A DNA stretch of 9,765 bases from a virus (Duplodnaviria; Heunggongvirae; Uroviricota; Caudoviricetes): IMG/VR virus record IMGVR_UViG_2609459769_000004. One strand, 5' to 3'. The notes beneath the pieces are model-generated. The model did not search any database and was not told where the DNA came from. It saw only the letters and a list, made by a program, of their open reading frames with translations. This document shows positions 1,365-9,765 of the stretch, piece after piece. Within the stretch, counting starts at the first letter, position 1; the number at the start of each line of letters is the position of its first letter. The position numbers and the translations under genes were made by a program.

Positions 1365-1771
1365 GTGCCCGGTAAACGGGTCTCCCCCACATTACCGGAA
1401 GCAACCAGGGGAGTACCATTCGAAAGGCAGCATGCAGACAGTGATGACCCGGCAACAGTTGAGCCAGGGGCACGGTCCCCCGAATAATGCGTCTGGTAAT
1501 ACGCCGCAAGAACAAAAGAACCGACACCAAACAGCCCGCTGTCAGGGCTTCCGGATGGTCCCCGTGGTCCTGCCGGGCCTGCAGCTCCCGTATCCCCTTT
1601 CGGTCCCCGTGGTCCTGCCGGGCCTGCAGCTCCCGCATCCCCTTTAGGTCCCTGAGGACCTGCCGGCCCTGCAGCTCCCGTATTCGCGCCAGTTCTCCAC
1701 CTTCTGACCGTGCATACCATCAGGGTAAAAATTTGCATCCTGTACGCCTGCCGCCGCCAGCTTCTGACCAA
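1286..1771 (-). pseudogene. 5'-truncated phage tail-fibre gene fragment with collagen-like repeats and a distal C-terminal domain
   Basis: Minus-strand frame encodes [43 protein letters not shown] followed by ...[20 protein letters not shown], a tail-fibre-tip-like GTWRxxG motif. There is no plausible N-terminus: the in-frame sequence upstream is interrupted by a stop at 1784 and overlaps the preceding ORF. Confidence 0.55.
1557..1690. repeat. 45-bp tandem repeat, about 3 copies, encoding collagen-like Gly-X-Y triplets on the minus strand
   Basis: GGTCCCCGTGGTCCTGCCGGGCCTGCAGCTCCCGTATCCCCTTTC at 1557-1601, repeated at 1602-1646 with 2 substitutions, and a diverged partial copy at 1647-1690. 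Confidence 0.85.
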
Positions 1772-2039
1772 TCGCCTTTATCATTACTGGCGCAAGATAT
1801 CCGGCCCTGAATATGCGCACGGATTTTCTGCCTTCCGGCACAATTTGCAGCTTATCCAGTTCGGATAACTGCTGCTCCCCAAGCCACACAGGAGGCTCAT
1901 TATCTCCGGCCATACGCGCGTCATGTTCCTGCCATTGTTTTGCGTGTGACCAGGCATCACTACCCGCAAAAATAATGACTTCTGTTTCTTTGTGTTTTAT
2001 GCCGCGTGACTGCTGTTTTACGTTCGGTGCCAGTTTCAT
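1644..2039 (-). CDS. Hypothetical protein, 131 aa; probably the 5' fragment of a larger gene that reads into the collagen-repeat DNA
   Basis: ATGA start/stop overlap with the upstream ORF and SD AGGGG 6 nt upstream. The last ~15 codons overlap the collagen repeat in another frame and look like read-through (…[10 protein letters not shown]). Confidence 0.4.
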
Positions 2040-2335
2040 TTTTTACCCCTGAATCCGTTAATCATGGTTTTCAGCTTCTGGATGTTTGCCCGTGCCCTGG
2101 CGTTGCTGGTGGGCACGTTATGCGGCGCGGTCTGTACCAGAGAAAAATCACGCCGGAACTGATAAACAGGCATCACGCAATCATATTCGTAACCTTCACG
2201 GCGGTAGGTTACGCGCCGTTCTTCCACGCCCTTAATCATTACCGTGCCGCCGTACTGGTCGCGGTAAATATCACCGCGCGTAAATTTAGGGTGAGTGTTG
2301 CCACTGGCAGTTAAGCCAGAATATTTAAGTTTCAT
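2036..2335 (-). CDS. Small hypothetical phage protein, 99 aa
   Basis: SD GGAGA 5 nt upstream of the ATG, and ATGA overlap with the next gene. Protein MKLKYSGLTASGNTHPKF...RRVTYRREGYEYDCVMPVYQF. Confidence 0.5.
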   Translation of the reverse strand: MKLKYSGLTASGNTHPKFTRGDIYRDQYGGTVMIKGVEERRVTYRREGYEYDCVMPVYQFRRDFSLVQTAPHNVPTSNARARANIQKLKTMINGFRGKK

Positions 2336-2340
2336 TATTT

Positions 2341-2574
2341 TTATTCTCCGGTGTGCTGTTCTTTATATCTGTCGTGCAATAGATCTATTTCTTGCAGTTC
2401 CATTATTACAGGCTCAAGAAGCGTTATTAATGCCGTGGCAATTCTTGATTTTTGTTTGTCGCATTCATTGTCGCCAAGTGTTTCAAGCCATATGCGCAAT
2501 ATTTCCTGCATGTTTTCACTGTGAGAAAGTGCAAGAAATGCGCGGTCTATTGTTTCGAGGTAAATATCACGCAT
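2341..2574 (-). CDS. Small hypothetical protein, 77 aa
   Basis: SD GAGGA 9 nt upstream; start overlaps the upstream gene's stop by 8 nt. Confidence 0.45.
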   Translation of the reverse strand: MRDIYLETIDRAFLALSHSENMQEILRIWLETLGDNECDKQKSRIATALITLLEPVIMELQEIDLLHDRYKEQHTGE

Positions 2575-2800
2575 GGCTTACATCCTCAGGAAATTTTCTT
2601 CTGTAACGCGCCTCTGCCACATATTCCGCATAATCGGCGGCGATATTCAGTACATCAAGTCCCGTTGATTTATATTCTTTCGTGGAAAGTAAGAAAAAAG
2701 CCGCTCTAATAAGTTCTGGCATTGACGAAAGCGCATCAGCCGCATCATCAGGAACGCCGGAAAATTCCTGTTTCAGGGAATTAAAACGATCATCACGCAT
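2567..2800 (-). CDS. Small hypothetical protein, 77 aa (MRDDRFNSLKQEF...); alternative start at 2812
   Basis: Start lies 2 nt downstream of a G8 tract (on the coding strand) and overlaps the upstream gene's stop, suggesting translational coupling. Confidence 0.4.
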   Translation of the reverse strand: MRDDRFNSLKQEFSGVPDDAADALSSMPELIRAAFFLLSTKEYKSTGLDVLNIAADYAEYVAEARYRRKFPEDVSHA

Positions 2801-3014
2801 AACCCCCCCCATTTTCACAATCAGCAACAAGAATATTTTTAGCGTCATTCAGTGACCGCGTTGCGGTGTATCGGATACATTCCAGGGCGAATAGTGTGTA
2901 TTCTTCCCTTTCTTCCTTTTGTGCAAGCTCTGCTGTGCATTCAATATCAATAAGCGCGTGCATCAGCGTAGTGAGTGCGGCGGCGGCTGCGTCCGGTGTG
3001 GTTTTATTGCACAT
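2793..3014 (-). CDS. Small hypothetical protein, 73 aa (MCNKTTPDAAAAALTT...); the longest ORF extends to 3068
   Basis: SD GGAGGGG immediately upstream of the ATG at 3014. The C-terminus ...ENGGGYA is encoded across the G8 homopolymer. Confidence 0.4.
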   Translation of the reverse strand: MCNKTTPDAAAAALTTLMHALIDIECTAELAQKEEREEYTLFALECIRYTATRSLNDAKNILVADCENGGGYA

Positions 3015-3234
3015 GTACCCCTCCGCATTTTTTTTCGTTAGAAATAAGCGTTCTTCTTTCCTGTTCATCGATCAGGAATACGCAGACCTCACCGCTAAGG
3101 CGTTTAAGTAAGCCGATGATTGCCCCTGATTCGCTGTCGGTCATCATGCCAGGGTAATCCTCTGCCAGTGCGCAAATAACTTCGATTTGGTGGGCGCGTT
3201 CTGCTGCCTGTTGTAGTGTGATTTCCTGGCTCAT
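3004..3234 (-). CDS. Small hypothetical protein, 76 aa (MSQEITLQQAAERAHQIEV...)
   Basis: ATG overlaps the stop of the Icd-like gene (ATGA), consistent with translational coupling. Confidence 0.45.
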   Translation of the reverse strand: MSQEITLQQAAERAHQIEVICALAEDYPGMMTDSESGAIIGLLKRLSGEVCVFLIDEQERRTLISNEKKCGGVHVQ

Positions 3235-3425
3235 AAGCCTACCCCCTGGCGAATACGGGCGGCGAATACAGCAACACAACCGGACGGGCAACGGCTACGC
3301 GCTTCGCGTTCCGTCCAGGCGGTTACGTGGATGATTTGAGATTCTCCGGCACTTAGTGCCAGAAAACGCCACACAAAGGCAGTTTGTGTGTGCGCCAGAC
3401 GTGGGGTATGCTGTGTTCCAGCCAT
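3231..3425 (-). CDS. Icd-like small protein (host cell division inhibitor Icd-like family), 64 aa; first gene of the leftward operon
   Basis: SD AGGAG 8 nt upstream of the ATG. Protein MAGTQHTPRLAHTQTAFVWRFLALSAGESQIIHVTAWTEREARSRCPSGCVAVFAARIRQGVGL carries the T-E-R-E-A-R ... F-A-A-R motif I associate with Icd-like proteins of P4-like prophages (from memory). Confidence 0.5.
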   Translation of the reverse strand: MAGTQHTPRLAHTQTAFVWRFLALSAGESQIIHVTAWTEREARSRCPSGCVAVFAARIRQGVGL

Positions 3426-3612
3426 AATCGTTACTCCTGTTAACGGTTTGGTTAGACGCCCCGCTACTGCCGCAAACAGTTCGGGGCGTTGTCGTTTACA
3501 TCCTCTTACTGAGGTGTGATTTAAATTAAATTCAACTGAATCACAGGTCAAGTGTTTTTTGTGATTCTTTTTTGTGTATACTGAATCACATCTTTTGTTT
3601 AGGAGAATGCAC
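3426..3612. promoter_or_regulatory. Divergent control region between the Icd-like operon (leftward) and a regulator gene (rightward), with repeated operator-like motifs and a leader hairpin
   Basis: Four copies of GAATCACA / TGTGAT(T/C) in alternating orientation at 3515-3522, 3537-3545, 3560-3567 and 3582-3590, about 22 bp centre to centre. Candidate -10 TATACT at 3577-3582 for the plus promoter; candidate -35 TTGACC (complement of 3546-3551) for the minus promoter. Hairpin ACGCCCCG / CGGGGCGT at 3456-3489. Confidence 0.55.
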
Positions 3613-3918
3613 ATGGCAAAAAACACTATCAACGACAAATCAAAACAGATTTCAATTCGTATCCCACATGATGCTTTTGATGGCATGGAATCCGTAAAAC
3701 TGGACGGCGAAAGCAACGCCGGATTCATAGTAACCGCCATGCGCGGTGAAATCGCCCGCCGCCAGGCAGAAGGAAGCGGAGAAAACCTCCTGATTTCTTC
3801 GCTCAATGCACTGGCGCAGGTGGAAAAACTCGGAATCAAAGCCGCCGAGGAGATCGGGCAGCTCGTCACTGTCGCACGTGAAGAACTCCAGCGCCGCAAG
3901 ACTAAAGAACCAGAGTAA
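3613..3918 (+). CDS. Putative DNA-binding regulator, 101 aa, possibly ribbon-helix-helix
   Basis: SD AGGAG 7 nt upstream. N-terminus KQISIRIPHDAFDGMESVKL... fits a beta-strand-then-helix RHH pattern. Divergent from the operator array. Confidence 0.4.
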   Translation: MAKNTINDKSKQISIRIPHDAFDGMESVKLDGESNAGFIVTAMRGEIARRQAEGSGENLLISSLNALAQVEKLGIKAAEEIGQLVTVAREELQRRKTKEPE

Positions 3919-3975
3919 TCACCATCAGCGCCGTGGTGTAAGGTATTACGGCGCATTGCTATGCAGGACAACACA

Positions 3976-4149
3976 ATGACCGATAAAGAATTGACCAAAA
4001 CATTATCACCGGCACGGAAAAGACGGCGCAGAAAGATAGAGCATGAATCAGAAAGATTCGCGCCATGTGCTTTTGCCCTTGAGCAATTCCTTAAAGAGTA
4101 CAGGGAAAAGCGCTCATTGCAGGTATGGCAACGAACTGAACCAGACTGA
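3976..4149 (+). CDS. Small basic hypothetical protein, 57 aa (alternative start at 3961)
   Basis: AGGA 8 nt upstream of the ATG at 3976. Protein MTDKELTKTLSPARKRRRRKIEHESERF... Followed by the terminator at 4229. Confidence 0.35.
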   Translation: MTDKELTKTLSPARKRRRRKIEHESERFAPCAFALEQFLKEYREKRSLQVWQRTEPD

Positions 4150-4228
4150 TTGCATTGCCCACCAGCCGCAAATGTGGCATTGTTGGCAATGCTCATGCGT
4201 TGGGGATAAGGTATAGCTTGTGTCGAAT

Positions 4229-4256
4229 GGCCACCGTGACAGGTGGCCTTTGTTTT
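4229..4256 (+). terminator. Rho-independent terminator ending the rightward regulator operon
   Basis: Stem GGCCACC / GGTGGCC with GTGACA loop, followed by TTTGTTTT. Confidence 0.7.
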
Positions 4257-4541
4257 GCCCGTTATTTGGCAATTGTGGCGCTTCTTCACACAGTTGATAT
4301 AATTCCCCTGCACTGATCCAATTTTTTCGCAGCAGGTTAATTGTTCGCAAGGGCGCTCTGGTAACGGGGCGCTTTTTGTTTTTACCCACCAGCACAATAA
4401 AAATCTTTATTTTCCATTTTTATAAAATTTCATGCTTTCCGGACGACTGGTCATATGTCATTTTTTAGCAGAAGATTTTGCCTTGCTGGTGAGTAGCTTC
4501 TCGGTTAACACGATGTACCGTATAATCAGCACCGCGTGTGG

Positions 4542-5120
4542 TTACTGAATACGCTCACCAAAGTAAAACTCAGGCTGATATTCACGTATCAGCCTTTTTT
4601 CTTCTTCCTCCAGTTCACGTTTTTTGCGCTTACATGCCTGTAGCGCCCTCCCCTTCTCGCTGGCACTTATCTGGTATTGCTCTTTGCGGCGGGAAAAATC
4701 CTGTAATGCACCCCACGGGATACCATAAGCCCCCGTTTTTCTGATACCCGGTATCACATTTCTGAATACCCAGTTACTGAAACGATGGGCGAATGTGCCT
4801 TGCGTCGTTGCTTTGCGGCTACGGGCTATTAGTTTGTAGAAACCTGACTCAGAGATAATGCTCATATTCTGATTTCCTCCTGGGGTGTAAGTTAAATTTA
4901 CTCCCTTTTCATCATCATCAAGCATCTGCAACGCCGTACGCGAATTGGTCAGTTCCAGCGCAGCGCAGACATCCTTTGCAACAAACCACGGATCGCCGTT
5001 CAGATACACCACGCGAACGTTCACACCATCAAAGCGCAGAACGACCAGATCACGAAAATCACAGAATTTTTTTACATGACGTGCGTCACCCTTGCCCGTC
5101 ACGGCAATATTTTTATTCAT
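4542..5120 (-). CDS. Bro-N domain protein (antirepressor-like), 192 aa
   Basis: N-terminal ...FDGVNVRVVYLNGDPWFVAKDVCAALELTNSRTALQMLDDDEKGV matches the Bro-N signature. Charged coiled-coil-like C-terminus KRKKRELEEEEKRLIREY. SD GAGGT 9 nt upstream. Confidence 0.7.
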   Translation of the reverse strand: MNKNIAVTGKGDARHVKKFCDFRDLVVLRFDGVNVRVVYLNGDPWFVAKDVCAALELTNSRTALQMLDDDEKGVNLTYTPGGNQNMSIISESGFYKLIARSRKATTQGTFAHRFSNWVFRNVIPGIRKTGAYGIPWGALQDFSRRKEQYQISASEKGRALQACKRKKRELEEEEKRLIREYQPEFYFGERIQ

Positions 5121-5138
5121 TTCTTTTTTACCTCACAT

Positions 5139-5165
5139 ACAAAAAACCCCGCATTGCACGCGGGG
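5139..5165 (-). terminator. Rho-independent terminator after the integrase/AlpA genes
   Basis: Stem CCCCGC / GCGGGG with 7-nt loop; on the minus strand it is followed by TTTTTTGT. Confidence 0.6.
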
Positions 5166-5179
5166 TATGAAAGATATTA

Positions 5180-5383
5180 TTAGTGGGGATTGGCCTGTTC
5201 TCGTTGTTTATCTAACCATGCTTCTACATCTCTACGGTGCCAGGTATGTCGCCGTCCAATTCTGAACGGCTGAGGAAAACCATTATTCTCATCTTTCCAG
5301 AAATTGATGAATGCACTCATTGCTCCATATCGCAAGATTTTCATTACGTCTTTAGTAAATAAAATATCTTCATTGGTATTCAT
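5180..5383 (-). CDS. alpA: AlpA-family DNA-binding protein (excisionase/regulator-like), 67 aa; the longest ORF starts at 5404
   Basis: Strong SD GAGGAGG 8 nt upstream of the ATG at 5383. Sequence ...ILFTKDVMKILRYGAMSAFINFWKDENNGFPQPFRIGRRHTWHRRDVEAWL aligns in pattern with E. coli AlpA (HTH, FP, W-L tail). Confidence 0.65.
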   Translation of the reverse strand: MNTNEDILFTKDVMKILRYGAMSAFINFWKDENNGFPQPFRIGRRHTWHRRDVEAWLDKQREQANPH

Positions 5384-5396
5384 TTGCTGAACCTCC

Positions 5397-6635
5397 TCAA
5401 CCATTTACTACTCTTAAACCTTTCATACCACCGGATCTATTAATTACCCCTTTTCTCGCATCATCAAAAAAATCACCGACCCATTGCATCATGATCTTAC
5501 GCTGTTCTAGATAAGTAGTTCTATTATAAATATCTCTTATTTTATCACCACTTTTATGCGCCAATGCAGCCTCGATTACATCGGGGTTAAATCCCTCCTC
5601 ATTTAAAAGCGTACTCCACATTGAACGAAAACCATGTAACGTTACAATCCCTTTGAACTTGCTGGCAGCAATTGGGGTCTTGATAGTATTCCTCCCCATA
5701 GGCGCATCTTTTGTTCTGGAGGAAAAAAACACATAACGCCCTCTTTTTATTTCCTGCATTGTTCTGAGGATACTAATAGCCTGTGATGACAAGGGAACAA
5801 CATGTTCACGATGGCATTTCATTTTATGCGCGGGGATAATCCACAAGCCAGAATCAAAATCAATCTCTGACCACTCTGCTTTAATCGCCTCACCTGGCCT
5901 GACCATTGTCAATATCTGGAATAAAAGTGCATTATGAGCTATTTGATAGGTATGAGGCACACTATCCCACCAGCTCAGAAATTCAGGCAATCTTTCAACA
6001 GGTAGTGCTGCTAATGATTTATTTTTCTTTCCTGTGAATGCAGTCTTTATCTTAAGTAATGGATTTGTTTTCAATGCTCCACAATTTACAGCATAATTCA
6101 TAATTTCATTTAATCTTGATATTAATTTTTTTTGCAACGCATTCTTATCGGATACGGCATCCAGAGCATTAATAGCTACTGGTGCTGTAATTTTTTCTAT
6201 ACTGTACTTACCAAAGAAAGGAACAAGATATTTGTATACTTCATATTCGATATTATACAGCGTAGGTTTCCGCAATTCAGATCCCTTTTTAAAAGCGAAC
6301 CATGCATTAGCAATAGCTTCAAATGTCTGTAGATTTTTTAGTGACATCTCAATTTTACGATTTTTCTTCTCCGTCACTGGATCAACTCCACGTGCAATCA
6401 TTCGCCGAAGTTCATCACGTACTTCCCGTGCTTCCGCGAGTGAGAATTCAGGAAAACGTCCTATCGTGTATGTCTGCCGTTTCTTCGTTATCGGATGGCT
6501 ATAACGGAAACGCCACACTTTCCCACCGGCTTTACTCACATTCAGCAATAAACCGAACCCATCATAAACGGCATAGTCCTTTTCACGTGGTTTCATCCCC
6601 TTAACTTCAGTCACGGTTAATGGCTTTACCGACAT
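5397..6635 (-). CDS. int: Tyrosine site-specific integrase, P4-type, 412 aa
   Basis: N-terminal arm-binding-like region (LLLNVSKAGGKVWRFRY), C-terminal catalytic region HGFRSMWSTLL...GDKIRDIYNRTTYLEQRKIMMQW with candidate catalytic Tyr. SD GAGGG upstream. Confidence 0.9.
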   Translation of the reverse strand: MSVKPLTVTEVKGMKPREKDYAVYDGFGLLLNVSKAGGKVWRFRYSHPITKKRQTYTIGRFPEFSLAEAREVRDELRRMIARGVDPVTEKKNRKIEMSLKNLQTFEAIANAWFAFKKGSELRKPTLYNIEYEVYKYLVPFFGKYSIEKITAPVAINALDAVSDKNALQKKLISRLNEIMNYAVNCGALKTNPLLKIKTAFTGKKNKSLAALPVERLPEFLSWWDSVPHTYQIAHNALLFQILTMVRPGEAIKAEWSEIDFDSGLWIIPAHKMKCHREHVVPLSSQAISILRTMQEIKRGRYVFFSSRTKDAPMGRNTIKTPIAASKFKGIVTLHGFRSMWSTLLNEEGFNPDVIEAALAHKSGDKIRDIYNRTTYLEQRKIMMQWVGDFFDDARKGVINRSGGMKGLRVVNG

Positions 6636-6796
6636 CTATCGCCCTCATTTTTTAGTCCGTCATGTAGTCCATTCAAGCCAATAACAAGCGATAAACTAAC
6701 TCATTATCAAGCAAAGAGAGGAAACTCATAAAATCACAACTCATTGAAAAGACTATGAAACGACACCAGAACATACAAACAGGTAAGAAATGTACC
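6636..6796. promoter_or_regulatory. AT-rich integrase-upstream region with three direct AACTCAT repeats; candidate int promoter / attachment-arm region and junction with the truncated terminase
   Basis: AACTCAT(T/A) at 6698-6705, 6723-6730 and 6738-6746. The region lies between the integrase start (6635) and the premature end of the terminase ORF (6797). Confidence 0.3.
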
Positions 6797-7804
6797 CTAC
6801 ATCCAGAATGACGCAATCCGGGAATTTCGTGGCGTTCCGGTGATACTGCCGTCCGCCACCGCCCGTTCACCTTCACGAAGCCAGATCCCTTTGTTATTCA
6901 GTTCGCGTTTCTGCTCAGGGGCAATCAGCCCGCGACAATGCGGACACATCAGACGGGCAGCCTGACCGGCAGCCACAAAATCCGGGTTATTCCGGTATCC
7001 GGTCATGTTATCCATCACCGGCTGAAAATATTCCCCGCAGTGCGGACACGGCCAGTACCACCGGCGGCGGTCTCCCCGGTTATACAGTGACAGGATCCCC
7101 GTTGTTGGCGGTGCCTCATGTGCGCCGCCACAGCGCCATTTGGTGTCAGTGATATCCCGCCCCGGCGAACTCTCGACCAGGGTCATCCCCGAGGACATAA
7201 AGGTGGTGGTACGCTTTGATGCCAGGGTGAAGGCATCCCCTTCCCCGTCCACGTTTTCAGGGAAACGGTCATAATCCGTCAGCGCCACACGACGGTAATC
7301 CGAAGAAGAAAATACAGTGATCGACGGCCAGCCAATCTTCAGGAAGGAGCCGTCAAGAAACATTTTATCGTGGACGTTGTTGTCATTACGGGAAGGACTG
7401 AGGCGCTTGCTGACCTCCGGACTGTGGCGAAACGTTCTGGAAAGACGCGTTCTGGAATGCTCACGCGCCTTCGTCTCAGTCATCTGCACCACCAGCATAT
7501 CCGCCGGATCACAGATGATGCCGTACACAATCCAGCCATCAATCAGCCCTTCGGTTTTCCCGGTTCGCGCAGGTCCCACAAACACCACCGCGTCATATTC
7601 ACGGGCTGATAATGTATTAATGGGGTCAATCATATAGGGCGTCAGCGATGACTCCCACGGACCGGAAGTATTGGCTCCCCGTGGTACCCGCATATAACGC
7701 CTGATGGCTTCCGCTACTGGTAACCGGCTGGGTGGGCGAAACAGCGAGGCCACTTCGCGCCAGATATCGGATGCGCGGCTATGGCTCTCGTTCACCTGAT
7801 TCAC
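6797..7804 (-). pseudogene. Terminase large subunit (lambda gpA-like), N-terminal 335 aa only; truncated
   Basis: SLFRPP...VAEAIRRY, Walker-A-like GPARTGKTE, CPHCGEY...CPHC and NKGIWLREG parallel lambda gpA. Lambda gpA is about 640 aa; here the ORF ends at ...ASFWM* with no continuation. Confidence 0.85.
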
Positions 7805-8277
7805 ATATCGGCCTCATCACAACAGTCAATGACTGCCTTTTCCAGTGTATCGCGGATCTCATCAACCACAATCTGTACTTCATTCAGTTGTGATGCGGTC
7901 CACCCCCTGTCCCTCTCCAGCCGGTCAGGCCAGGTTTCCAGTACCTGAACTATCGCTTTCACCACGACAGAAAAGGACCGCCTGACATCACTGACTGGCA
8001 CAAGCTGAACAGTTTCATGCTGAAATTTAAGACGCTCGCGCTCGGACTGATACCATGCCTTCCGATCATGTGGGTTCATCTCTTCATCTTCGGAAGCCGG
8101 TGGTTTTTCCAGCAACGAAATAATCAAATCCGTCAGGAGATACATTTTTTTCTTTTCATTACTGCCTGGTGCAAGAGGAACATCCGCCATTCTGGCGGCA
8201 ACAGTCTGCCGGTGCAGACCTGAAAGGGCTGCCAGTTGATTAATATTTAACTTCATATTTTTCAGCTCGCCGTCCAT
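7801..8277 (-). CDS. Terminase small subunit (lambda Nu1-like), 158 aa
   Basis: N-terminal HTH-like LNINQLAALSGLHRQTVAARMAD parallels the start of lambda Nu1. SD GGAGGG 7 nt upstream. Stop overlaps the TerL start (ATGA). Start is about 187 bp from the putative cosN, as in lambda. Confidence 0.85.
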   Translation of the reverse strand: MDGELKNMKLNINQLAALSGLHRQTVAARMADVPLAPGSNEKKKMYLLTDLIISLLEKPPASEDEEMNPHDRKAWYQSERERLKFQHETVQLVPVSDVRRSFSVVVKAIVQVLETWPDRLERDRGWTASQLNEVQIVVDEIRDTLEKAVIDCCDEADM

Positions 8278-8289
8278 TCACATCCCTCC

Positions 8290-8490
8290 ACATAAACCGC
8301 TGAACAAAAGTGGCTCTTTTTTTGTAAAGAAATGCCGCCATATAAAGATGTCGAACAAAAATCAACCACAATCATCATCTTTTTAATGCTAAATACATTA
8401 AAAACAACAAGTTACGCTAATGATGATGATGACGATAAAATCACAAAAATGCGCCTTTTTCCGCGCCGTCCGCCCCGTGTTCAGGCCCAC
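8290..8490 (-). other. Lambda-like cos site region (cosN about 8464-8475, cosB towards Nu1)
   Basis: Minus-strand GGGCGGACGGCG resembles the lambda cohesive end GGGCGGCGACCT. Downstream CGTCAT...AACTTGTTGTTTTTAATGTATTTA parallels lambda CGTCATAACTTAATGTTTTTATTTA (recalled from memory). No ORF of 60 aa or more on the minus strand in this interval. Confidence 0.5.
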
Positions 8491-8729
8491 CCCACCAGGA
8501 GGACCCGCAAAAACGATAATGGTTATCATTTTCAATGTAGTCCGGTTTCTTCCACCATCGCACCGGACAGGCGACTATGAGGGGACAACGCCGCGCTCCG
8601 TTAACGCGGTAAACCCCGGTGTGTATCGTTTTTGATTATCCCCGCACACTCGCGCAGAGGAGTCTCCCTGTCGGGCTGCGGTCTCTGTTAATGAGGGAAT
8701 ACAGCGACGATACGGCGCATCAACAAAAC

Positions 8730-9197
8730 TTATTTCAGGCACTGAGTACGGATATATTCCTGCGCCCCTTCCAGTTGCTTGTGCATCGTCATCAGCCGCT
8801 CTCTGAGGGTGAAATAATCCCGTTCAGCGGTGTCTGCCAGTCGGGGGCCGGTTGCATTATCCACGCGGGCGGTGCCGGTGGCTTCACGCACGGGACCTGG
8901 ACAGGTGGCGTTGATACGCAGGCGCTTACGACCAGCGGCAACGTCAGCGCGAAGAGTTTCATTTTCAGCTCTCGCATCGGCTAATTCCCTCGAGTATTTT
9001 GCATCGAGCGCAGCAACATCACGCTGACGCATCTGCATGTCAGTAATTGCCGCGTTCGCCAGCTTCAGTTCTCTGACATTTTTGTCGCGCTGGGCTTTGT
9101 AGGTAATGGCGTTATCACGGTAATGATTCAGCCCCAGACTAAGCGCACCACAGGCCACCAGCATGACAATAATCACCACACACAGAACACGGTTCAT
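8730..9197 (-). CDS. Rz: Rz i-spanin, 155 aa
   Basis: [67 protein letters not shown]... is near-identical in pattern to lambda Rz, with an N-terminal TM segment. Confidence 0.9.
8792..8977 (-). CDS. Rz1: Rz1 o-spanin lipoprotein, 61 aa, embedded in the +1 frame of Rz
   Basis: [61 protein letters not shown] has a lipobox LVVSAC and proline-rich core matching lambda Rz1. Confidence 0.85.
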
Positions 9198-9198
9198 A

Positions 9199-9285
9199 TC
9201 ACCACCAACGGATTGCCCAGACCAGAACAGCAATGGCCACAATACGAATGGCAAATGCCATTGCCCGAATAAGTTCAGCACTCAT
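9199..9285 (-). CDS. Candidate 28-aa hydrophobic peptide immediately upstream of Rz
   Basis: ATG at 9285; [28 protein letters not shown]; stop TGA is 1 nt before the Rz ATG. No recognisable SD, so this may not be expressed. Confidence 0.2.
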
Positions 9286-9296
9286 CTTTTTAAAGT

Positions 9297-9547
9297 TCAC
9301 GATTTCAGCGCAATGACCAGTTTTGCCAGCCCATATAGCATCGGAGACACAGCAATACCAACAGCCACCCACTTAATAGCAAAAGCCAGCGCTCTGCTGA
9401 TGTCATCAGTCACTGTCACCCCAGCAGCCCCGACGAAGACAACATCACCCAGGCGAGGGACAGAAAAAGAGCAACCAGCATTAGTGAAAATGAAATACCG
9501 ACAATCACACACAGGACCTTTGCCGGCGTTATGAGTTTGTCTGACAT
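9297..9547 (-). pseudogene. Candidate holin-like small membrane protein, apparently frameshifted (two frames, two TM segments)
   Basis: Frame A: MSDKLITPAKVLCVIVGISFSLMLVALFLSLAWVMLSSSGLLG* (9547-9416). A second frame continues ...VTVTDDISRALAFAIKWVAVGIAVSPMLYGLAKLVIALKS* (to 9297). It sits in the position where lambdoid phages carry holin/endolysin genes. Confidence 0.3.
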
Positions 9548-9549
9548 AG

Positions 9550-9645
9550 CTACCCCTTAATTGCCACAATTAACTGGGATACTACCCATAAAAAAGGGAT
9601 GCTCCAGACCAGCAAAAATTTCCAGTTTGGTAATTGACTAATCAT
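9550..9645 (-). CDS. Candidate 31-aa hydrophobic peptide
   Basis: SD AGGGAG 7 nt upstream of the ATG at 9645. MISQLPNWKFLLVWSIPFLWVVSQLIVAIKG, with the stop 2 nt before the next ATG. Confidence 0.3.
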   Translation of the reverse strand: MISQLPNWKFLLVWSIPFLWVVSQLIVAIKG

Positions 9646-9716
9646 GAGTCGCAACTCCCTAATCAGTTTGCTAAAATCAATCAAGGCAGCCTCCCATAGC
9701 TTACTGCCATAAAAAC

Positions 9717-9760
9717 AAAACCCCGCTTGCTGCCAACAAACGGGGTTTTTACTTTTATTC
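9717..9760. terminator. Hairpin with flanking T/A tracts; likely bidirectional intrinsic terminator
   Basis: AAAACCCCG ... CGGGGTTTTT with an imperfect extended stem, followed by TTTTTACTTTTATT on the plus strand and preceded by AAAAACAAAA. Confidence 0.6.
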
Positions 9761-9765
9761 ACTTA

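Follow-up and report, generated by a model that had tools for sequence, protein, structure and literature searches.

A predicted ribbon-helix-helix regulator and a putative four-site operator array between divergent promoters in a family of Gram-negative phage satellites

The window, i.e. the whole stretch of 9,765 nucleotides analysed here, carries a truncated island in which a leftward operon headed by an icd-like gene and a rightward regulator gene diverge from a short intergenic region. The features of the island and its surroundings are as follows.

1644-3234, minus strand: rest of the leftward operon, with four small ORFs, DUF4222 (2036-2335) and the first 131 codons of the primase (1644-2039)
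3231-3425, minus strand: icd-like gene (64 aa), first of the leftward operon, ribosome-binding site AGGAG at 3438-3434
3234-4406, minus strand: stop-free frame of 391 codons, in frame with the icd-like gene and ending in it
3384-3498, plus strand: candidate cis-antisense small RNA of about 80 nt, -35 TTGTGT at 3384-3389, -10 TATGCT at 3407-3412, start near 3419
3421-3452, plus strand: stem-loop SL1 of the candidate RNA, with the anti-SD CUCCU in its loop
3455-3464/3481-3490, plus strand: terminator stem of the candidate RNA, followed by a U tail
3515-3521, plus strand: predicted operator site 1, TGTGATT (extended, GGTGTGATTTAAATTA), over the predicted leftward transcript start
3523-3551, minus strand: leftward promoter P_L, -35 TTGACC at 3551-3546, 17-nt spacer, -10 TAATTT at 3528-3523
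3539-3545, minus strand: predicted operator site 2, AATCACA on the plus strand, inside the P_L spacer and abutting its -35
3560-3566, plus strand: predicted operator site 3, TGTGATT, upstream of the rightward -10
3577-3582, plus strand: -10 (TATACT) of the rightward promoter P_R, which has a T-rich upstream stretch and no good -35
3584-3590, minus strand: predicted operator site 4, AATCACA on the plus strand, directly after the rightward -10 and over the predicted rightward start
3613-3918, plus strand: gene for a YlcI/YnfO-family protein (101 aa), ribosome-binding site AGGAG at 3601-3605, proposed binder of the array
3976-4149, plus strand: small basic ORF (57 aa) co-transcribed with the regulator gene, containing ARKRRRRK and matching phrog_21027
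4229-4386, plus strand: two intrinsic terminators, stems 4229-4248 and 4349-4376
4542-6635, minus strand: integration and Bro zone, with integrase (5397-6635), AlpA-like HTH protein (5180-5404) and Bro-N (4542-5120)

By the definition of Fillol-Salom et al. 2018, a Gram-negative PICI has int, alpA and pri-rep colinear on one strand. Both int and alpA are present in the window and the primase is cut after 131 codons; intact counterparts carrying the same module are L001, L097 and EcCICFT073, the last being the prototype Gram-negative PICI. In a 95%-identical E. coli locus the element is intact, and primase, SSB and a capsid gene belong to it. The int end of the window island adjoins the N-terminal part of a terL gene, 96% identical to that of a Stx2a phage, and the intact island in E. 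coli RM10466 (L097) splits the terL of a Stx2c prophage. The terL junction places the window island among the helper-embedded PICIs (HE-PICI, PMC10111431), the far junction being lost in the window: it is a helper-embedded PICI remnant in a Stx-type prophage, truncated on the primase side. At about 1640-1800 the cut primase is joined to collagen-repeat tail-fibre and tail-fibre-assembly genes, and the terL side extends over 6795-9765.

The icd-like protein matches NF033153 at 64.8 bits (cut-off 25) and is annotated as such in homologue H1. It also matches the PHROG families phrog_1743 and phrog_6196, named 'transcriptional repressor', which disagrees with the name 'cell division inhibitor' used by NCBI. 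At 3370-3390 on the minus strand, 35-55 nt inside the gene, there is a terminator-like hairpin with a T-run. Its stem is confined to a single icd subtype, and the hairpin is probably a side effect of the TQTAFVWRF codons, with the T-run coming from the conserved WRF codons. Between alpA and bro lies a strong intrinsic terminator (5166-5146, minus strand; ACCCCGCGTGCAATGCGGGGT and then a T-run), which, as read from its sequence, would stop alpA transcripts before bro unless antiterminated. On the plus strand, the terminators at 4229-4386 are predicted to end the rightward transcript ahead of bro.

The first-pass annotation had described four copies of one motif, alternating in orientation at about 22-bp intervals across a divergent promoter, and the sequence bears out the array: TGTGATT or its complement AATCACA occurs four times within 3515-3590, starting at 3515, 3539, 3560 and 3584. 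Two of the starts given earlier (3515 and 3560) are exact, and the other two (3537 and 3582) differ trivially in taking in one or two flanking bases (CTGAATCACA). The site centres are at 3518, 3542, 3563 and 3587, so that the spacing is 24, 21 and 24 bp (mean 23), close to the earlier estimate; its strict two-turn phasing does not hold, the real range being 21-24 bp. The four sites can be written as two 31-bp inverted repeats, TGTGATT-N17-AATCACA, and a repeat finder returned inverted repeats at 3510-3521/3539-3550 and 3560-3567/3583-3590 together with an 11-nt direct repeat, ACTGAATCACA, in two copies 45 bp apart. Over the whole window and both strands, TGTGATT was observed 9 times against an expectation of 1.80 ± 1.36, a count reached in 0 of 200 shuffles. 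For the 187-bp intergenic region taken by itself, some non-trivial 7-mer attained a count of 4 in 34 of 20,000 dinucleotide shuffles. A fifth copy, at 3217, might have been an auxiliary operator, but we rejected this: the copy is coding, the same coding sequence is found unchanged in loci of other operator types (H and I, see below), which makes it a coincidence, and it is missing from another type-A locus.

When the sites are set against the promoters, the order from left to right is site 1 (leftward +1), leftward -10, site 2, leftward -35, rightward -35 region, site 3, rightward -10 and site 4 (rightward +1). Sites 1 and 2 thus bracket the leftward -10, sites 3 and 4 bracket the rightward -10, and sites 1 and 4 cover the predicted transcription starts. 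P_L was read from the sequence with a match of 8/12, and a promoter scan of the window at a threshold of 9/12 called neither P_L nor P_R; homologues of P_L were called by the scan in site types C and B, as TTGACA-17-TAAAGT (10/12) and TTGACG-17-TAACAT (9/12). In an alignment of 13 sequences the CAA of the P_L -35 is invariant, and the P_R -10 appears across types as TATACT, TATATT, TATAGT or TAATGT. The segments between sites that are kept in related loci are GTCAAG (the leftward -35) and GTGTATAnT (the rightward -10). The association of motifs with promoters proposed earlier is upheld, TATACT (3577-3582) adjoining site 4 and the leftward -35 TTGACC abutting site 2. The same annotation had left it open whether the array serves a repressor or an activator; sites that flank both -10 boxes and lie over both predicted starts favour repression and disfavour activation.

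The gene next to the array encodes a protein whose homologues carry the NCBI name YlcI/YnfO and which matches the YlcI/YnfO N-domain model NF041551 (NCBIfam) over residues 9-50 at 65.8 bits, against a cut-off of 30. An AlphaFold2 model built with 42 homologues, as a monomer, had a mean pLDDT of 81 and shows an extended N-terminal segment followed by helices at 19-28 and 35-54 and then by a conserved helix of 40 residues at 59-98. The N-terminal domain (approximately residues 9-54) accordingly models as a ribbon-helix-helix (RHH) fold, β-α-α with an N-terminal strand. PF07704 matched 30 of the 42 homologues with a best E-value of only 0.0011 and did not match the window protein; a PDB profile search with the regulator gave no RHH match, and a Foldseek search with the full-length model gave no match. 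A C-terminal helix-hairpin-helix, suggested by a match to Hef (E 0.012), was dropped, as AlphaFold2 gives one continuous helix. Among regulator proteins, variation is limited to the first ~40 residues, in which Arg16 is invariant, and the C-terminal 56 aa are nearly invariant and shuffled among N-terminal types. We also considered, and rejected, the idea that this gene is a by-product of the long minus-strand frame opposite it: the protein scores above the NCBIfam cut-off and has the RHH fold in the model, and in a family search of the minus-frame peptide the last 64 aa only, i.e. the Icd domain, matched any family, which argues that the plus-strand gene is no artefact. The likeness to TraM of F-like plasmids and to NikR would be at the level of the fold only.

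To our reading, the four motifs are probably the operators of the 101-aa RHH protein, through which it would repress both P_L and P_R. The evidence that carries this reading is comparative. We assembled 96 loci from seven genera, comprising E. coli genomes, 80 IMG/VR contigs and look-ups of homologues in Edwardsiella, Klebsiella, Serratia, Erwinia, Raoultella and Enterobacter; a scan of genome contigs with the regulator protein alignment gave nothing that could be confirmed, and a scan of viral contigs and look-ups of exact proteins were used instead. Every locus has 4-5 sites, at about -117 (optional), -95, -71, -50 and -26 from the start codon. The layout is constant in all 96 loci, and the sites have at least nine different sequences, each of which goes with its own version of the regulator's N-terminal strand:

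Strand (K/R)QISIRIP (type A): site TGTGATT
Strand QLTTVRVP: site TGTGTTTC (TGTGTTT in the count table)
Strand QSLTARIP: site TGTAAG
Strand QMTT(I/V)R(V/I)P: site GTGAGATA
Strand QMKNIRFP: site GTGTATAT or GTGTGCTAC-like
Strand QLKNIRIP: site GTGTGTATTT
Strand QIKNVRVP: site GTGTGCATT
Strand QALKARVP (EcCICFT073, type H): site GGTGTGGCCCAC
Strand QQLNARFP: site TGGTATTCAC

In the count table, TGTGATT has a mean of 4.0 copies per locus in all 35 type-A loci and zero in the other types. Wherever the type-A strand occurs in Edwardsiella, Klebsiella and Serratia, TGTGATT is present four to five times at the same positions despite diverged flanks, and site 1 is kept at -98 from the ATG in type-A loci of these three genera and of E. 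coli. A GTGT core is common to all site types. Sites 1 and 2, which flank the leftward -10, are the best-conserved in all types. The orientation of the sites varies by type (+-+-, ++-+ or ++--), which suggests that the unit is the single site rather than a palindrome and which fits one symmetric dimer per site. Thus, the alignment of homologous elements that the first-pass annotation had proposed as a check on motif conservation shows a conserved layout with type-specific site sequences that change together, and the covariation of sites with strands, along with the layout, supports its proposal of an operator array for the 3613-3918 product between divergent promoters.

Other proteins of the island do not follow the site type. 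This bears first on AlpA, the known activator of Gram-negative PICIs, which could be the protein that binds the sites and switches on the icd-like/primase operon. Its gene lies 1.6 kb from the array, and in EcCICFT073 AlpA is necessary for induction and its over-expression is sufficient (PMC6092414). However, the AlpA-like proteins of L001 (type A) and CFT073 (type H) are 94% identical and stand beside completely different sites, proteins 74-78% identical accompany types A, E and G, and those of most type-A loci are 13-32% identical to each other (67% in one pair, L088/L089). With no covariation between AlpA and site type, and with an activator being ill-suited to sites over both -10 flanks and both starts, we regard binding by AlpA, which the first-pass annotation had named as an alternative, as very unlikely. 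Icd-like proteins show no covariation either: those of the window (A) and L002 (B) are 84% identical, and those of L087 (A) and L093 (G) 97%. The replication proteins differ within one site type (primase, DUF927/Toprim or AAA_25), and the 57-aa ORF is identical in EcCICFT073 despite the different operator type (A vs. H). As none of these proteins is tied to type, recombination appears to have isolated a cassette consisting of the array and the strand-coding start of the regulator gene. The covarying DNA lies within about 150 bp of the strand codons, so that physical linkage contributes to the association; nevertheless, judging from the sequence comparison, linkage alone does not explain a concerted change at four separate sites, which is what a type-specific binder predicts.

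The same comparison bears on a host protein as the binder. The CRP consensus is TGTGA-N6-TCACA, and the type-A half-sites do contain TGTGA...TCACA, so that the sites might be taken for binding sites of host CRP or another host factor. The paired inverted halves are, however, 21 nt apart here and not N6, the eight other types have no TGTGA at the same positions (e.g. TGTAAG, GTGGCCCAC and TGGTATTCAC), and a host factor has no need for nine site versions linked to one island-encoded protein. The spacing of N21 and the types lacking TGTGA exclude host CRP, whose sole binding the first-pass annotation had named as a refutation, and we consider a host factor of any kind extremely improbable.

A third candidate function is that of iterons or a centromere, the repeats being bound by the initiator of replication or by the RHH protein in the role of a partition adaptor of the ParG/omega type. 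The repeats are regularly spaced and orientation-free, and RHH centromere-binding proteins do bind such arrays, omega using the same heptad (PMC9499535). Against iterons, the replication proteins change among loci that share a site type, and the PICI ori is reported downstream of pri (PMC10111431); against a centromere, a ParA-type ATPase gene is absent from all locus gene tables examined. Both functions are further at odds with the exact coincidence of the sites with promoter elements, and together they seem to us quite unlikely. The comparison with omega/ParB of pSM19035 is nonetheless instructive. The heptad WATCACW is non-palindromic, and the omega RHH dimer recognises it in both orientations (PMC9499535); the form AATCACA/TGTGATT of this heptad is the type-A site, letter for letter. 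In both systems the sites are non-palindromic, overlap promoters and stand in direct or inverted orientation, with one dimer per site, as is proposed here. The omega heptads, in contrast, are contiguous, in 7-10 copies with a period of 7 bp (high affinity at two or more adjacent copies), whereas single sites 21-24 bp apart are found here, a spacing that is unusual for RHH arrays. Pfam and PDB sequence searches revealed no homology to omega, including no Omega_Repress match, and the ParA partner is absent here.

The conserved intergenic region also specifies a candidate RNA. Just left of the array, on the plus strand, a putative RNA of about 80 nt would be antisense to the ribosome-binding site and start codon of the icd-like gene. 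Among 13 homologues, pairing in its structure is canonical in 94.9% of cases on the plus strand compared to 79.0% on the minus strand, and the plus strand has 47 G·U cells and 0 A·C cells, a strand-specific covariation. Its -10 is conserved and is extended (TGn) in roughly one half of the homologues checked. In an Rfam scan of the whole window (E ≤ 1) there was no C4/isrK match, and the RNA was left without an Rfam family; isrD-like and MicX matches were both below the gathering score and were discarded, the isrD match being the plus-strand terminator at 4229-4386.

The 391-codon minus-strand frame crosses the array and is antisense to the gene of the regulator. In 14 of 15 loci the frame in this relative position is open. 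Of 13 representative loci, 12 have no stop in it across the array, with a per-locus probability of 0.01-0.09, and the other two minus frames through the array have 2-7 stops. In EcCICFT073 the frame (L096 7752-9053, plus strand) has 433 codons and extends from 35 nt after alpA to the stop codon of the icd-like gene. RefSeq annotates 'icd-like protein' pseudogenes or long forms opposite the regulator gene at L001 5564-6121, L097 13016-13615 and L003 2675-3229; these opposite-strand annotations probably reflect the long open frame and not a second icd gene. In the IMG/VR contig L053, two Icd-like/leader modules stand in tandem in the translation of the long frame, which indicates that some islands have a duplicated switch region and matches annotations of 'Icd-like protein (x2)'.

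In P4, eta/kil is a long frame whose translation, coupled to an alpA homologue, lets upstream transcripts escape termination (PMC10111431). The arrangement here resembles the P4 immunity region (PLE, vis = AlpA homologue) in having a long ORF downstream of alpA/bro with an internal promoter, and the window frame, known here as an open frame, has the nested-gene architecture of P4, the nested short end product being Kil (cell-killing) in P4 and the icd-like protein, an annotated division inhibitor, here. By analogy, transcripts from the alpA/bro side or, where the island is embedded in its helper, late transcripts of the helper may cross the regulator gene and the array through translation of the frame and so enter the replication operon; the alpA-bro terminator at 5166-5146 complicates this read-through step in the window. 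In P4, immunity depends on the CI RNA, a processing product of the same strand, whereas a divergent RHH protein and its array are found here; the Rfam scan of the window gave no match to an RNA of this kind (C4/isrK), and the conserved structure is on the opposite strand.

These elements allow a different division of labour, in which the regulator binds the array as a local autoregulator, and the replication operon is governed by the antisense RNA and by transcription and translation from the alpA side. The candidate RNA is conserved, and so is the stop-free frame that leads from alpA/bro into the icd-like gene; both are in line with this division, as is the sufficiency of AlpA over-expression in EcCICFT073 (PMC6092414). 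The CFT073 regulator is also shortened: its gene (L096 8474-8653, minus strand) encodes 59 aa, with an in-frame loss of the long helix, approximately residues 51-93, and its array has perfect copies of GGTGTGGCCCAC at sites 1 and 2 and degenerate sequences at sites 3 and 4. However, it is around the leftward -10 that the best-conserved sites (1 and 2) lie, rather than at the promoter of the regulator gene itself, and on balance we find a purely local role unlikely, though less so than the other alternatives considered here.

The likely reading remains repression of both promoters by the RHH protein, and on this basis a mechanism can be outlined. Covariation and fold point to one RHH dimer per site, over some 8-12 bp. 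The GTGT core would probably be read by the invariant Arg16, and a site extension of 4-6 bp by the variable strand residues 12 and 14 together with the N-terminal arm. Neighbouring dimers would probably be stabilised or linked through the conserved C-terminal helix. Occupancy of the array would block P_L and thereby keep the satellite replication module (the icd-like, DUF4222 and primase operon) off, and would also autoregulate P_R. The regulator, with at least nine specificity types, may accordingly act as the repressor that provides maintenance or immunity in this family of Gram-negative PICI satellites.

Immunity region immI of P22 has the RHH repressors Mnt and Arc, the divergent promoters Pant and Pmnt and the sar antisense RNA, and immI of P1 has c4 RNA, icd and ant. 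By this established knowledge, the present module is similar in combining a small RHH repressor at divergent promoters with an antisense RNA and an operon of the icd/antirepressor type, and immI is likewise a secondary immunity region. The differences are the gene set, the one or two compact operators there compared to four spaced sites here, and the RNA, which here is a cis-antisense candidate outside Rfam families. In mechanistic terms, repression by an RHH protein from repeated operators between divergent promoters is of a well-known kind, and the interest lies in satellite biology; the array is not the omega system by the criterion of spacing, and it is neither a CRP site nor C4/CI RNA immunity.

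According to the field, the repressor of Gram-negative PICIs is not known, and their reliance on the activator AlpA rather than on a repressor has been called a mystery (PMC6092414). Stl/Rpr of the Gram-positive PICIs (SaPIs) is divergent from the replication module near int/xis, as the regulator is here, and keeps the island quiescent (PMC6092414), a role that is only proposed for the present regulator; the two are likened by position and proposed role, and Gram-negative PICIs are described as AlpA-activated. Literature searches returned no paper that connects YlcI/YnfO or an RHH protein with the regulation of PICIs, and in searchable papers a YlcI/YnfO-type protein appears solely as a 'prophage-associated protein' (PMC13612085). 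In E. coli K-12 the ylcI locus (DLP12) lies beside cos/nohD, and a comparable repeat array is absent there.

A wider proposal, which we offer tentatively and hold to be possible rather than probable, is that Gram-negative PICIs, including EcCICFT073, have in the RHH protein and the four-site array their missing immunity or master repressor module. There would be at least nine specificities that do not cross-react; the module would lie antisense inside a translated frame of the eta/kil kind and would be backed by the cis-antisense RNA against the icd-like gene; induction would come from transcripts, either AlpA-driven or late ones of the helper, that run across the repressor gene and the array; and the C-terminal helix might be a surface for oligomerisation or for sensing the helper. 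Two observations suggest that the RHH protein may not be the master switch: EcCICFT073, with its short regulator and degenerate sites 3 and 4, is quiescent without a helper, and AlpA is both necessary for induction and, when over-expressed, sufficient (PMC6092414).

A conserved divergent RHH gene with a co-evolving array at the promoter of the replication operon is a concrete and cheaply testable candidate for the repressor. One stretch of 190 bp appears to hold two promoters, four operators, the terminator of an antisense RNA and an open reading frame, which is unusually dense. The nine linked versions of protein and site constitute a natural experiment on recognition by RHH proteins, and they suggest the existence of immunity groups among co-resident satellites.
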